Shown here: in pieces, positions 5,064 to 43,771 of the stretch
Position numbering within the stretch: position 1 is the stretch's first letter
How the letters are laid out: each line of letters opens with the position of its first letter
Assembly: GCA_021826225.1 (NCBI GenBank)
Contig: JAKBAV010000003.1
Location: forward strand, 1,561-65,560
DNA from: Pseudomonadota bacterium
GTDB taxonomy: Bacteria > Pseudomonadota > Alphaproteobacteria > Acetobacterales > Acetobacteraceae
Direction of reading: 5' to 3'
Length of the DNA stretch: 64,000 nt
Position numbers and translations under genes: made by a program
Notes under the pieces: model-generated
Database searches by the model: none
What the model saw: the letters and a program-made list of their open reading frames with translations, nothing else
Told to the model about the DNA's origin: nothing

Positions 5064-5120
5064 GTCCTGGCCAGGTGACGCACTTCGACATCGCCCCTCG
5101 TCCCGGCCGGTCCGGGGGGT

Positions 5121-5240
5121 GATGCCAAAGGTCTTGCCAAACCTGAACGGACTACCAGCGCCATGGTCCGGCTTTACGCGCCGGAAACCAAGCATGTTGA
5201 CGATGGTCCCGCTGAAGCGGGCGGCTACTCCCCAATGACC
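5121..5240 (-). ncRNA. yybP-ykoY (Mn2+-sensing) riboswitch
   Basis: The minus strand reads GGGGAGUAG...CGUCAACAUGCUUGG...CCAUGGCG...GGCAAGACCUU, the conserved yybP-ykoY segments in order, directly upstream of a membrane transporter. Confidence 0.9.
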
Positions 5241-5245
5241 CGCGC

Positions 5246-5274
5246 AGTGTAGGGGCGCGCCGGCAAGAGGTAAA
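5246..5274 (-). promoter_or_regulatory. Putative sigma70 promoter of the yybP leader
   Basis: TTTACC-N17-TACACT ending about 6 nt before the riboswitch 5' end. Confidence 0.6.
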
Positions 5275-40766: not shown

Positions 40767-40884
40767 CTATGAAGATTATAGGACGTCAAGTAAAGCTTCG
40801 GTAATCCTGGCCAATGGAATCTGGCAGTGGAGTCTGGCAGTGGAAAATGTACAAATTGGCGTCGATATGCGGATTGGAGACCAG

Positions 40885-41523
40885 ATGGACGATGAACTCA
40901 CCCCAGCGCTCTCCCCGCGGCCATTGCGTATCGGCGATGCCGCGCCCGATTTCCGGGCCCGCACCACGCAGGGTGAGGTGAAGCTCTCGGGCTACCGGAA
41001 GCGCTGGCTGGTGTTTTTCTCCCATCCGGCGGATTTCACCCCCGTCTGCACCTCCGAGTTCGTCGCCCTGGCCCGGGCCGCCGACCGTTTCGCGGCGCTG
41101 AACTGCGCCCTGCTGGGCCTTTCCGTGGATAGTTTATTTTCCCACCTCGCCTGGCTGCGTGCGATCCGCGATGTCTTTGGCGTCACCATCCCGTTTCCGG
41201 TGGTGGAAGATCCGAGCATGGCGGTGGGCCGTGCCTATGGCATGATCGCCCCGGGCGTGCCGGACAGCGCCGCGGTGCGCGCGAGCTATTTCATTGACCC
41301 GGACGGGATTATCCGCGCGATGACTTGGTATCCGAACAATGTCGGCCGCTCGGTCGAGGAAATGCTGCGCCTGGTCATGGCGCTGCAGATGACCTCGGGC
41401 GATCAGGCGCTGGCGCCGGAAGGCTGGCAACCCGGCGCCCCGGGCCTGGCGCCGCCCGCTTCCAGCCTGGCGGAGATGGCGCCGGGGGCGGACTGGTTCT
41501 GCCGCCAGGCGGATAAGGCATGA
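40885..41523 (+). CDS. Peroxiredoxin (Prx6 subfamily)
   Basis: FSHPADFTPVCTSEF, VGRSVEE, PEGW-x-PG and C-terminal DWFC; GGAG before ATG 40885. Confidence 0.92.
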   Translation: MDDELTPALSPRPLRIGDAAPDFRARTTQGEVKLSGYRKRWLVFFSHPADFTPVCTSEFVALARAADRFAALNCALLGLSVDSLFSHLAWLRAIRDVFGVTIPFPVVEDPSMAVGRAYGMIAPGVPDSAAVRASYFIDPDGIIRAMTWYPNNVGRSVEEMLRLVMALQMTSGDQALAPEGWQPGAPGLAPPASSLAEMAPGADWFCRQADKA

Positions 41524-41930
41524 CCGCGTTACACAAGGACCGCGCCCGCGCGATTGCGGTGGCGGAGACGCTGAAACTCTTTGCCCAGCCGCAGCGGCTG
41601 ATGATCCTCTCATACCTTCTGGCGGGGGAGCGGACGGTCAGCGAGATCAATGCCGCCACCAGCATCGGCCAGCCGGCATTGAGCCAGCAGCTCGCGGCGC
41701 TGCGGGGCAAGGCGCTGGTCCGCACCCGCCGCCACGGCACGCAGATTTTCTATGCCCTGGCGGATGAAACGGCCACGCCATGGATACGCTGCCTTGAGGC
41801 GATGTTCGGCGCCGGCACCGCCCCCTTCGCCGCCATCCAGGCCACGGCATCGCCCGGTCCAGCCCAGGCCGCCGCGCCGCGCCCGGCCGGTGCCGCGGCT
41901 TTTGTGCAAATGCTCGGCAAGAATTATTAA
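41520..41930 (+). CDS. ArsR/SmtB family transcriptional regulator (BigR/SqrR-like)
   Basis: LK-x-x-A-x-P-x-RLMIL, QPALSQQLAALR, LVRTRR-x-G-x-QIFY; ATGA overlap with prx. Confidence 0.9.
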   Translation: MTALHKDRARAIAVAETLKLFAQPQRLMILSYLLAGERTVSEINAATSIGQPALSQQLAALRGKALVRTRRHGTQIFYALADETATPWIRCLEAMFGAGTAPFAAIQATASPGPAQAAAPRPAGAAAFVQMLGKNY

Positions 41931-42061
41931 GGCGCGGGCAACGCCGCTTCCACGCCGCGCCCTGTGTTCCCATTCGAAACCACCTGAACCGGCCCTCAAA
42001 CAGGGCGCTTGAGCCAGAGCGCCAGTCTATCTGCCCCATTTTGTTGTTTGTTTTCAACGCT

Positions 42062-42079
42062 TTTTAGCCATGCTAAAAT
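42062..42079 (+). promoter_or_regulatory. Extended -10 promoter overlapped by a palindrome, upstream of the decarboxylase leader
   Basis: TGcTAAAAT overlapping the inverted repeat TTTTAGC-CAT-GCTAAAA. Confidence 0.5.
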
Positions 42080-42152
42080 AGCATAACACCAGCTGGACCA
42101 CATGCCTTACATCCCGATCCGCTTCGCCCACTCAATGCCTGAGCGGGTGGAC

Positions 42153-42200
42153 GAAGCGCGACGCATCGGAAGCTCGACGCATCGGAAGCGCGACGCATCG
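42153..42200. repeat. 16-bp tandem repeat x3
   Basis: GAAGCGCGACGCATCG / GAAGCTCGACGCATCG / GAAGCGCGACGCATCG. Confidence 0.95.
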
Positions 42201-42347
42201 TACGTGCCAAGAGTCAGGTTGCCGATAATCAGTTTGCGCTAATCAGTTTGCCGCGGACCCGGTCGGGTACAGCAACCACGAGACGCATCCTGCTAGGTCG
42301 AAATCGGTCCCCCTTCCATGGTGGCCGGGATCAATTGGAGACGCTTG

Positions 42348-42398
42348 ATGTCGCACATACGGTTCATAACGATGCGAAGTCCACGCAGCCTCGCCTGA
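42348..42398 (+). CDS. Candidate leader peptide MSHIRFITMRSPRSLA
   Basis: GGAG 7 nt before the ATG; rare codons (ATA x2, CGA); stop codon directly followed by a terminator-like hairpin. Confidence 0.5.
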   Translation: MSHIRFITMRSPRSLA

Positions 42399-42448
42399 GC
42401 GCGTCCGCGCATGTCCGCATGCGCGCCCCGCGTTTCTTGTTGTTTTTT
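42399..42448 (+). terminator. Attenuator-like intrinsic terminator in the decarboxylase leader
   Basis: CGCGCATG-TCCG-CATGCGCG stem (extendable by GCGCG/CGCGT), then TTTCTTGTTGTTTTTT ending 55 nt before the CDS. Confidence 0.6.
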
Positions 42449-42502
42449 GAACAATCGGCGGGTCAGATTCAGCCTGCCGGCGATTTGCGAGGATTTTTCT
42501 CC

Positions 42503-43771
42503 ATGAGCCTTATTGAAAACCGCGGCCTTATTGAAACCCACAGCCTCACCGAAACCCGCGCCGCCATAGGCCCGCCGCACCGCCATGTCTCCCTCCGCGC
42601 CGATAGCGATATGCTGCCCAGCGTGGCGGAAATGGTCAAAACCCTGCATCCGTCCGAGCCGTTGCACTGCATCCGCCCGGCCGCCATCAGCGCCGCGGCG
42701 CGGAATTTCGCCGCCGCCTTCAATGGCGACGTGCTCTACGCCGTGAAGTGCAATCCGGAGCCCGCCGTGCTGCGCGCCTTATGGGAGGGCGGCATCCGCC
42801 ATTTTGACTGCGCCTCAATCTCCGAGGTCACGCTGGTCCGCCGCCTGTTTCCCGGCGCGCATATCCATTTCATGCATCCCGTCAAATCCCGCCCGGCCAT
42901 CGCCGAGGCCTGGGTCCTGCACGGCGTGCGCGATTTCGTGCTCGATTCCTTCAGCGAACTCGACAAGATCATGGCGGAAATCACCGCCTCGGCGCTTGAC
43001 CGCCCCGGCCTGTTCATCCGCATCGCCTTGCCCGAGACCGGCGCCGTCATCAATCTTTCCAAAAAATTCGGCACGGATTTTGCCACCGCCATCGCCCTGC
43101 TGCGCGCCGCCCGGCCTCTGGCCGGCCGCCTGGGTGTGGCCTTCCATGCCGGCTCGCAATGCCTCGACCCGCTGGCCTGGCGGGACGCCATCGCCCTGGC
43201 CGGCGAAGTCATCCTTGCCGCCGGCGTGCGCGTCGATGTCCTGGATGTAGGCGGCGGCTTTCCCGCCGCCTATCCGGACATGGACCCACCCCCACTCGGC
43301 GCCTTCATGGCGGAAATCGATGCCGCCTATGACCGTCTGAACATGCCCGGCCTGAGGCTGTGGGCCGAGCCCGGCCGCGCGCTTGTCGCCGGCGGCGGCT
43401 CTGTGGTGGTGCAGGTACAGCTCCGCCGCGACAACATGCTGTACATCAACGACGGCGTGTATGGCGCCCTGGCCGATGCCGGCGCGCTGAAATTCCGCTT
43501 CCCCACCCGCCTGCTGCATAGCCGCCACTCCGCCGGCGCGCCGGATGCATCGTTCGGCTTCTTCGGCCCGAGCTGCGATTCGCTCGATGTGATGAACGGC
43601 CCCTTCATCCTGCCCGATGACGTGGCCGAAGGCGACTGGATCGAGATCGGCCAGCTCGGCGCTTATGGCACATGCCTGCGCACCGCCTTTAACGGGTTCG
43701 ACCGCGCCACTCTGGTCGAGGTCTCCGACCGCGCCATGCTCGAAGGCCCCGTTTCCGAGCCCCAGCCCTGA
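42503..43771 (+). CDS. Ornithine/lysine decarboxylase, group IV (type III PLP, alanine-racemase fold)
   Basis: YAVKCNP (PLP Lys), FDCASISE, KKFG, FHAGSQ, LDVGGGF, EPGR, GPSCDSLD, GAYG; GAGGA before ATG 42503. Confidence 0.93.
   Translation: MSLIENRGLIETHSLTETRAAIGPPHRHVSLRADSDMLPSVAEMVKTLHPSEPLHCIRPAAISAAARNFAAAFNGDVLYAVKCNPEPAVLRALWEGGIRHFDCASISEVTLVRRLFPGAHIHFMHPVKSRPAIAEAWVLHGVRDFVLDSFSELDKIMAEITASALDRPGLFIRIALPETGAVINLSKKFGTDFATAIALLRAARPLAGRLGVAFHAGSQCLDPLAWRDAIALAGEVILAAGVRVDVLDVGGGFPAAYPDMDPPPLGAFMAEIDAAYDRLNMPGLRLWAEPGRALVAGGGSVVVQVQLRRDNMLYINDGVYGALADAGALKFRFPTRLLHSRHSAGAPDASFGFFGPSCDSLDVMNGPFILPDDVAEGDWIEIGQLGAYGTCLRTAFNGFDRATLVEVSDRAMLEGPVSEPQP

Follow-up and report, generated by a model that had tools for sequence, protein, structure and literature searches.

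The window analysed here, i.e., the whole stretch of 64,000 nucleotides, carries on its forward strand (42503-43771) a gene for an alanine-racemase-fold (group IV) ornithine/lysine decarboxylase of 422 residues, which is recognised by PF02784 and PF00278 and whose closest matches among solved structures are lysine/ornithine and ornithine decarboxylases (E 1.7e-40). The product is termed ODC below, the substrate being a prediction from these matches, as in an earlier reading of the sequence only, which had likewise named a group IV ornithine decarboxylase; its closest named orthologues are from Acidocella (Acetobacteraceae). A peroxiredoxin gene and a gene for an ArsR-family regulator lie upstream (40840-41930), next to a divergent minus-strand cluster, and these neighbours differ in the relatives. 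A manganese (yybP-ykoY) riboswitch was also found in the window, on the minus strand at 5067-5253 (62.9 bits).

The gene is preceded by a leader of about 420 nt, the length proposed earlier, which would begin at a promoter-like site, TTTTCA-17-TAAAAT (42051-42079, plus strand), a consensus match only, of which the promoter scan found one against 0.4 in shuffles. This site overlaps an ATGC-N7-GCAT inverted repeat (42070-42084, within a feature spanning 42051-42087), which covers the -10 region, is kept in most Acidocella leaders (L002-L023), is rare elsewhere, and may possibly be a regulator site.

Within the leader, the GGAG word (42337-42340), the gap of 7 nt and the ATG at 42348 are found where the sequence-only reading had placed them, and open a uORF of 16 codons on the plus strand, MSHIRFITMRSPRSLA, which ends with its TGA at 42398. 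Some of its codons are rare, as had been claimed, given that, over 1501 long ORFs of the genome, ATA makes up 11.1% of the Ile codons and CGA 4.7% of the Arg codons, to which can be added AGT, at 4.6% of the Ser codons, which had escaped that reading. The stop is followed directly by a GC hairpin (42399-42433) and a U-rich tract (42433-42449), and a further hairpin (42457-42478) stands before the decarboxylase RBS region (42484-42497, with the SD GAGGA at 42489-42493), all on the plus strand and as described before. The frame of the enzyme is itself open for 85 codons upstream of its start (42248-43771), crossing the uORF in a different frame, an opening that the relatives do not have. A frameshift fusion of the uORF and the enzyme was considered and rejected, since the spacers of the relatives are 43-281 nt long and, by inspection, show no shared remainder.

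The frame of the uORF is conserved well beyond this genome. An SD-led frame with MRS(P/T) occupies the same place in 23 of the 25 same-genus leaders that have upstream DNA (the window included), the exceptions being one locus in which the uORF is degenerate (L015) and one in which it was lost (L024). The comparison was carried beyond the genus with 66 loci and 80 of 121 family-level matches, and, counting each distinct leader that has the conserved upstream motif and for which a start could be called (L103 has no start call), a short ORF is present in 120 of 123, the remaining three running directly into the enzyme. Among 109 distinct uORFs, most have 15, 16 or 17 codons (16, 48 and 13 uORFs, respectively), the start is ATG in 102 and GTG in seven, the stop is TGA in 90, TAG in 17 and TAA in two, and in 86 the stop falls in the stop column of the window in a frame-blind alignment. 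Of the 38 non-modal lengths, 37 differ by multiples of three, compared with 43/43/37 for a control non-coding distance. Given this, the uORF is, by comparison of the loci, a real conserved frame, which is probably translated.

The peptide, on the other hand, is not conserved in this Acetobacteraceae family. The 48 uORFs of 16 codons share no invariant residue after the start, their third positions are not the most variable, and the pN/pS of the uORFs is 0.86-1.03, whereas the enzyme shows 0.27-0.36 in the same pairs, with a mild signal for the uORFs in codons 4-7 (0.73) and values of 1.08-1.53 in the other codons. The conservation at the level of amino acids that a leader peptide would call for thus fails.

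These results bear directly on the mechanism that had been put forward for this locus, taken here in the form in which an arrest peptide similar to SpeFL captures ornithine through its His-Ile-Arg residues, stalls the ribosome at the stop and blocks an intrinsic terminator. This model can draw on the HIR of the window, of three close relatives and of one Ferrovibrio uORF, on the hairpin and U tract directly after the stop, and on the fact that induction by the substrate would suit an ODC, but HIR is found in only these five of the 109 distinct uORFs and HIRR in none (MRSP is found in 45). SpeFL, according to its description (10.1101/604074), depends on HIRRXXH, at residues 10-16 of its 34, together with a Phe effector domain, whereas here the HIR lies 11 residues from the C-terminus, compared with about 24 in SpeFL, no Phe effector domain is seen, and the window uORF has a single Phe, at position 6. 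The model is, in large part, refuted by conservation, and the sensing of ornithine through HIR falls with it; the pairing and the gene contexts described below leave it hardly credible. What survives of the earlier reading is a conserved uORF whose 3' end lies on regulatory helices and whose occupancy by a ribosome would turn the enzyme on.

Upstream of the uORF lies a structured RNA element (42184-42349, plus strand), which the sequence-only reading had missed and which is conserved far better than the uORF. Its parts follow one another as a stem P1 (42192-42196 with 42285-42289), a near-invariant core (42199-42208 with 42271-42280), a hairpin P2, which carries an insertion in the window, a UCCUUU linker, a hairpin P3 (42305-42328), and the SD and start of the uORF. 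In alignment A1, which comprises 68 of 104 non-redundant sequences, P1, P2 and P3 covary, with 98.2% of the cells paired and 66 double changes against 10.5 +/- 2.7, a number reached in none of 500 shuffles. For example, P1 appears as GACGC/GCGUC, as GAUGC/GCAUC in Acidocella, and as GCCC/GGGC in ar45 loci. The core helix, by contrast with the stems, never covaries in these 68 homologues, and its register is therefore tentative.

A covariance model (R1), built without the window sequence, scores the window copy at 40.7 bits (E 3.8e-7) and matches 76 of the 80 family-level ODC loci, many of which are training sequences, three of the misses having no upstream DNA; here, as in the other tallies, kin are not independent. 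Matches to R1 were obtained in 18 of 151 class-wide genomes and in five of the six Rfam speF loci (E 1e-4 to 1e-6), where they extend over the ar45 module and the start of speF, and the core of ar45 is the same as that of the element, with the same core words. The Rfam models themselves score nothing here: the window has no ar45 (RF02347) or speF (RF00518) match at the gathering threshold, a search of 41930-42620 gave nothing at E<=10, 20 related loci gave nothing at E<=1, and RF00518 has no match in this genome. Since R1 joins the ar45 module and the start of speF to a shared core, while Rfam scores neither the window nor its relatives, the element is, on sequence comparison, a divergent branch of ar45 and of the extended speF element of Corbino et al., homologous to ar45 and the 5' part of speF. 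The link to the alphaproteobacterial speF leader that had been raised for this locus therefore holds through R1, but not through the Rfam speF model.

The genome also encodes a second ODC paralogue (39% identity, contig C137, starting at ~1896), which has its own divergent copy of the element (~1735-1800), seen by eye and missed by R1, which finds one copy in this genome. The subtype of this second copy recurs before speF-type ODCs in many metagenome matches, with the ATG of the enzyme ~105 nt behind the core.

The window copy is atypical, given that P1 has a C-A mismatch, the core has two changes, P2 carries an insertion, and a 16-mer is triplicated, so that its score contrasts with the 77-120 bits of the family members. 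The three tandem 16-nt copies (42153-42200, plus strand), which triplicate the 5' strand of P1, are absent from the aligned relatives, and together with a tandem pair of 14 nt (42218-42245) they are unique to the window copy and may represent either recent slippage or an assembly artefact. Degeneration or loss is also seen for further Acidocella copies (L015, L020, L022 and L024). These features would be expected if the element had decayed in this genome, leaving a near-constitutive leader in which the mechanism of the family is gone, but the SD, the frame, the CGA-AGT codons, the spacing to the stop and the helix between the uORF tail and the RBS (-21.3, top 4%) are all intact, and the change in the 5' core is matched by the HIR codons and is also present in the second copy of the genome. 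Decay at this locus is, given this, very improbable.

The element is predicted by folding to flip between a state that hides the SD and AUG of the uORF and a state that frees them. With P1 and the core enforced, opening of the uORF start region costs, in the folding model, a mean of 11.3 kcal/mol, against 15.2 with P1 broken, when a long helix is predicted to take in the SD and the AUG, and the P1-broken state is the harder to open in 60 of the 68 homologues and the easier in one. In the model, the SD-hiding fold comes out ahead by about 8 kcal/mol, and the difference between the two states is weak in the window copy (8.2 vs 9.6 kcal/mol). In 112 sequences, the 3' core pairs with the start region at -5.1 (shuffled -2.9, ODC starts -2.6) and the 5' core pairs with nucleotides 7-36 of the ORF at -10.5 (shuffled -8.3, ODC starts -8.8). 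The codons for H-I-R (42353-42362, plus strand) are complementary to the 5' core of the element, in a predicted alternative helix whose duplex of -11.0 kcal/mol makes them its best partner within the uORF, and the HIR codons of the Ferrovibrio uORF are likewise the best partner of the 5' core. The pairing of these codons with the RNA core in both lineages also counts against a SpeFL-like peptide, given that RNA pairing can explain the conserved letters of the uORF, HIR and MRSP. As another cause of the MRSP conservation, a hairpin within the 3' half of the uORF was considered, and was dropped for its weakness in the window (-4.7 kcal/mol, z 0.15). In one locus (L181:1218-1299, minus strand), the core is deleted, P1 has become a plain hairpin, and the element is fused directly to an ODC, which is likely a constitutive derivative; the loss of the core with the retention of P1 fits an on state formed by P1.

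The genes that follow the element point to polyamine metabolism. Among 171 pattern-match loci, 84 are followed by an ODC, 52 are too short, and 35 have other contexts, many of which are without P1 and probably chance; five viral matches, which are without P1 and look like chance as well, were rejected as copies. The element occurs in two ODC clades, before homospermidine synthase (L388, E 1e-181 against solved structures, with L244 and L271 assigned by the same Pfam pair), and before a SAM decarboxylase plus spermidine synthase pair (L202, an R1 match). P1-bearing elements also precede a class I glutamine amidotransferase (L380 and L382) and an uncertain gamma-glutamyl cyclotransferase (L303). 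Direct fusion of the element to a class I glutamine amidotransferase-like gene is seen in L188/L382, L380 and L381, a context which may have a link with polyamine catabolism. In nine loci (L084, L088, L091, L092, L187, L190, L194, L195 and L201), the ATG of the element is the start of the enzyme itself, and the RNA can therefore act without a uORF. In the genome of the window, SAM decarboxylase and spermidine synthase genes lie on contig C42 (14964-16431) with no element pattern upstream, and a homospermidine synthase was not found with one query in this genome, which is 87% complete.

Homospermidine synthase and SAM decarboxylase do not use ornithine, which is a further point against an ornithine-sensing peptide, since the element also stands before these enzymes. 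Polyamine feedback is the simplest logic, given that the regulated enzymes share end products and not ornithine, and by the same end-product logic the ligand would be spermidine or another triamine. Corbino et al. report no binding of ornithine, lysine, meso-DAP, putrescine, cadaverine or spermidine, results which, in their account, concern the full-length Agrobacterium construct (PMC1273637). The long SD-hiding helix may be the "long bulged stem-loop" of these authors, in which case the full-length construct was probably locked in the SD-hiding fold. A ligand that binds the fold with P1 and the core would give an on-switch, a poor fit with end-product feedback, and the polarity would thus demand either that polyamines favour the long helix or that a signal of shortage binds the core.

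A different role for the element may be considered here, in which Hfq or a specific regulator binds the ar45-like module, or the module is released as a trans-acting sRNA, and the uORF provides a fixed coupling that involves no metabolite. In S. meliloti, Smr45C is described as a stable, Hfq-bound RNA of 148 nt, detected apart from the downstream leader (PMC3346310), the same is reported for Bartonella (PMC7717549), and the ligand-binding results mentioned above are negative (PMC1273637). But the element is always on the same strand as, and directly before, polyamine genes, its pairing partners lie in the downstream SD and start region, the Acidocella copies have no U-tail after P1, and the S. 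meliloti study itself, as far as its text covers the point, leaves a cis role possible (PMC3346310). The S. meliloti locus names had no match in the supplements of PMC10117765 and PMC13285730. On balance, such a protein- or sRNA-based role is quite unlikely.

The 3' half of the uORF offers a path from the element to the enzyme. The minimum free energy fold of 42348-42495 (z -2.95) pairs the uORF tail, as a predicted anti-SD segment (42376-42395, plus strand), with the RBS region of the ODC and encloses three hairpins, the codons for R-S-P-R being those complementary to the enzyme RBS. Over 100 loci, with starts called without the uORF, which left out nine of 109 loci in which none was obtained, the cognate duplex reaches -15.5, compared with -12.8 across loci, -11.2 when shuffled and -10.4 for the 5' part of the uORF, and in 34 loci the cognate pairing is in the top 10%. 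A clade with a GGGGAC RBS (L008-L012) has matching letters in its uORFs. Covariation of this anti-SD helix is modest, with 77% paired against 32-60% in slid registers and 11 double changes against 6.1 +/- 2.0 (7 of 500), other measures giving 18, 30, 245 and 324 of 500. Outside the Acetobacteraceae, where start calls are unreliable, the tail-RBS pairing gave no signal (mean rank 0.47, 7 of 39). The distance from the anti-SD motif to the stop is 20 nt in 54 of 68 uORFs and 17 nt in nine, and insertions fall upstream of the motif.

A ribosome modelled at the stop, with an assumed footprint of -17 to +12, lowers the mean cost of opening the ODC start from 13.3 to 11.5, and from 17.3 to 8.5 kcal/mol in the window, with a drop of at least 2 in 42 of 98 loci against 17 for a control block. 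The mean unpairing of the SD rises from 0.20 to 0.31, with no gain in the window (0.20 to 0.15). By the same footprint, the ribosome would cover the 5' arm of the hairpin after the stop, as the sequence-only reading had supposed. This hairpin is stable (-20.1 kcal/mol, z -2.9, equalled in three of 200 shuffles) and forms with its U-rich tract a candidate intrinsic terminator (42399-42449, plus strand), although a simple terminator scan of 41800-43000 is not above chance on its own, with two sites against 1.2 +/- 1.4 in shuffles. A U-rich tract follows the uORF stop in 31 of 32 Acidocella-clade loci, compared with 27 of 68 others. Control by an intrinsic terminator, as originally proposed, is too narrow as the sole mechanism, given that these tracts are general only in the Acidocella clade, while the tail-RBS pairing is seen across the family.

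The rare codon pair CGA-AGT (42375-42380, plus strand) is a candidate site for ribosome dwell. Where RS(P/T/S) occurs, Arg is encoded by CGA in 64 of 66 cases and Ser by AGT in 63 of 66, each of these codons being under 2% in ODC genes. In 121 cluster representatives of 182 class-wide uORFs, AGT is the most frame-biased triplet, occurring 84 times in frame against two and 10 times in the other frames (56/2/7 without the CGAAGT group), compared with 69/396/223 by frame in ODC genes. An in-frame AGT is present in 70 of the 121 representatives, at 25 different codon indices, mostly two to six codons before the stop. The residues that precede the AGU look conserved as a peptide in other clades, with a frame-0 pN/pS of 0.30-0.57 in four groups, against 0.8-1.9 in the other frames, the groups being defined by their motifs and hence biased. 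Longer uORFs in these clades show apparent C-terminal peptide motifs that end at an AGT codon, Y-x-x-L-I/F-G-R-x-N-P-L-S-S, H-T-A-Q-D-I-Q-S and D-P-S-S-L, and are found, in the same order, in L191, L231, L241, L394, L395 and L397, in L072, L076, L078, L081, L174 and L176, and in L242, L250, L258 and kin; on their sequences, they are candidate arrest peptides. The bias fits either a pause site, acting as a fixed dwell for a relay or as the sensor itself, or a relic of RNA pairing that has stayed in frame.

If the ribosome itself were the sensor, it would pause with the rare AGU, which follows CGA in this family, in its A site, for longer when polyamines are low and with the help of clade-specific nascent peptides, and would cover the anti-SD segment and switch the enzyme on, the RNA setting only the rate of loading. 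This would account for the frame bias and for the peptide conservation in other clades, its polarity suits feedback, and two Acidocella loci (L020 and L022) keep the CGA-AGT uORF after the loss of the core. But an in-frame AGT is missing from 51 of the 121 representatives, among them those before homospermidine synthase and SAM decarboxylase, and at the same site within the family 32 of 97 members have other codons (10 of them AGA), so that Ser is not needed there. Some of these substitutions are matched by changes in the RBS (L125, L134, L141 and L143), the need for an open ORF would by itself hold an inherited AGT in frame, the direct fusions of element and enzyme dispense with the uORF, and among the papers listed by one literature search none dealt with polyamine-sensitive decoding of AGU. 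A sensing ribosome is therefore regarded as unlikely, though less so than the readings set aside above.

The reading preferred here is a two-stage switch, in which the RNA would sense the polyamine status and the uORF would relay the signal to the decarboxylase, and the sequence evidence leaves its chances evenly poised. The ar45/speF-type RNA would flip between its two folds, hiding the SD and AUG of the uORF in one and freeing them in the other, and a ribosome admitted to the freed start would read the 16 codons. While on the uORF, possibly dwelling at CGA-AGU or at the stop, it would strip the 3' half of the uORF from the RBS of the decarboxylase and occlude the 5' arm of the terminator-like hairpin, thereby turning the enzyme on, probably under polyamine scarcity. 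This two-stage switch requires neither the frame bias of AGU nor the peptide conservation in other clades, it is hard to see how a polyamine would favour the SD-hiding fold, and the uORFs kept without a core in L020 and L022 also speak against it. A wider proposal, possible yet more doubtful than probable, places the ar45/speF RNA as sensor at the head of a polyamine regulon in the Alphaproteobacteria, with ODC, homospermidine synthase and SAM decarboxylase/spermidine synthase under its control. The RNA would then represent a new class of polyamine-responsive two-state translation-initiation switch, wired to the enzyme either directly or via lineage-specific AGU-pause uORFs, and the ligand would have been missed since the probed construct was locked off.

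Several known systems resemble this two-stage switch in part. In attenuators of the ermC/cat type, a ribosome on a leader ORF frees a sequestered downstream RBS, and these systems sense a drug-induced peptide arrest, whereas in the present case it is initiation on the uORF that likely varies. The closest working analogy is the B12 riboswitch of M. tuberculosis ppe2, as described in PMC11260477, in which a riboswitch controls a uORF required for the downstream gene. There, the aptamer is known and coupling occurs by termination-reinitiation (PMC11260477), whereas the uORF studied here ends ~100 nt before the enzyme and would open a long-range anti-SD helix and the terminator arm. The spermidine riboswitch, a SAM-I variant, also stands before polyamine biosynthesis genes and gives end-product feedback, but it has another fold and is a transcriptional off-switch; the term speF is absent from that paper (PMC10853860). 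SpeFL/orf34 (10.1101/604074; PMC6386406) is likewise a short uORF that precedes an ODC and contains rare Arg codons, and there too a ribosome on the uORF turns the gene on, but SpeFL has 34 residues, depends on the essential HIRRXXH and the Phe effector domain, and acts via Rho (10.1101/604074), in contrast to the uORFs described here, which have modally 16 residues, do not conserve the peptide and follow a structured RNA.

The extended speF element of Corbino et al. (2005), for which these authors found no ligand (PMC1273637) and which Rfam divides into ar45 (RF02347) and the speF leader (RF00518), has the same core words, a P1 that closes the core, a U-rich/anti-SD linker, a P3 hairpin and an SD-like word, and is also found before a group IV ODC. 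The branch described here differs in falling below the Rfam thresholds, in its compact P2 and the other letters of its P1, and in its further contexts before homospermidine synthase, SAMDC-SpeE and a GATase. It also has a clean AUG uORF with a conserved stop, whereas the ar45/speF loci examined have only TTG and no conserved frame was found in them. The available text on the extended element gives no mechanism or ligand (PMC1273637), and ar45, the 5' half of the speF motif, is filed as a trans-acting sRNA (PMC3346310, PMC7717549) whose function was still called unclear in 2025 (PMC12403871). A literature search, in which subscription journals were poorly covered, found no description of the uORF or of the gene contexts of the element.

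Given this, the locus holds, to judge from its sequence relationships, a divergent form of a known orphan element with a likely uORF relay. To the speF motif, an orphan since 2005, the divergent branch adds compensatory versions of P1, a predicted competing fold and a set of genes joined by polyamine end products, although P1 and the alternative fold may already be drawn in the alignment of Corbino et al. These additions make the question of the ligand testable with a truncated P1-core-P1' construct. The uORF also illustrates that apparent peptide motifs, such as HIR and MRSP, can arise from RNA pairing. If the proposed switch is true, the element would add a second type to the RNAs that sense polyamines and provide a clear example of a uORF relaying the signal of a structured RNA.
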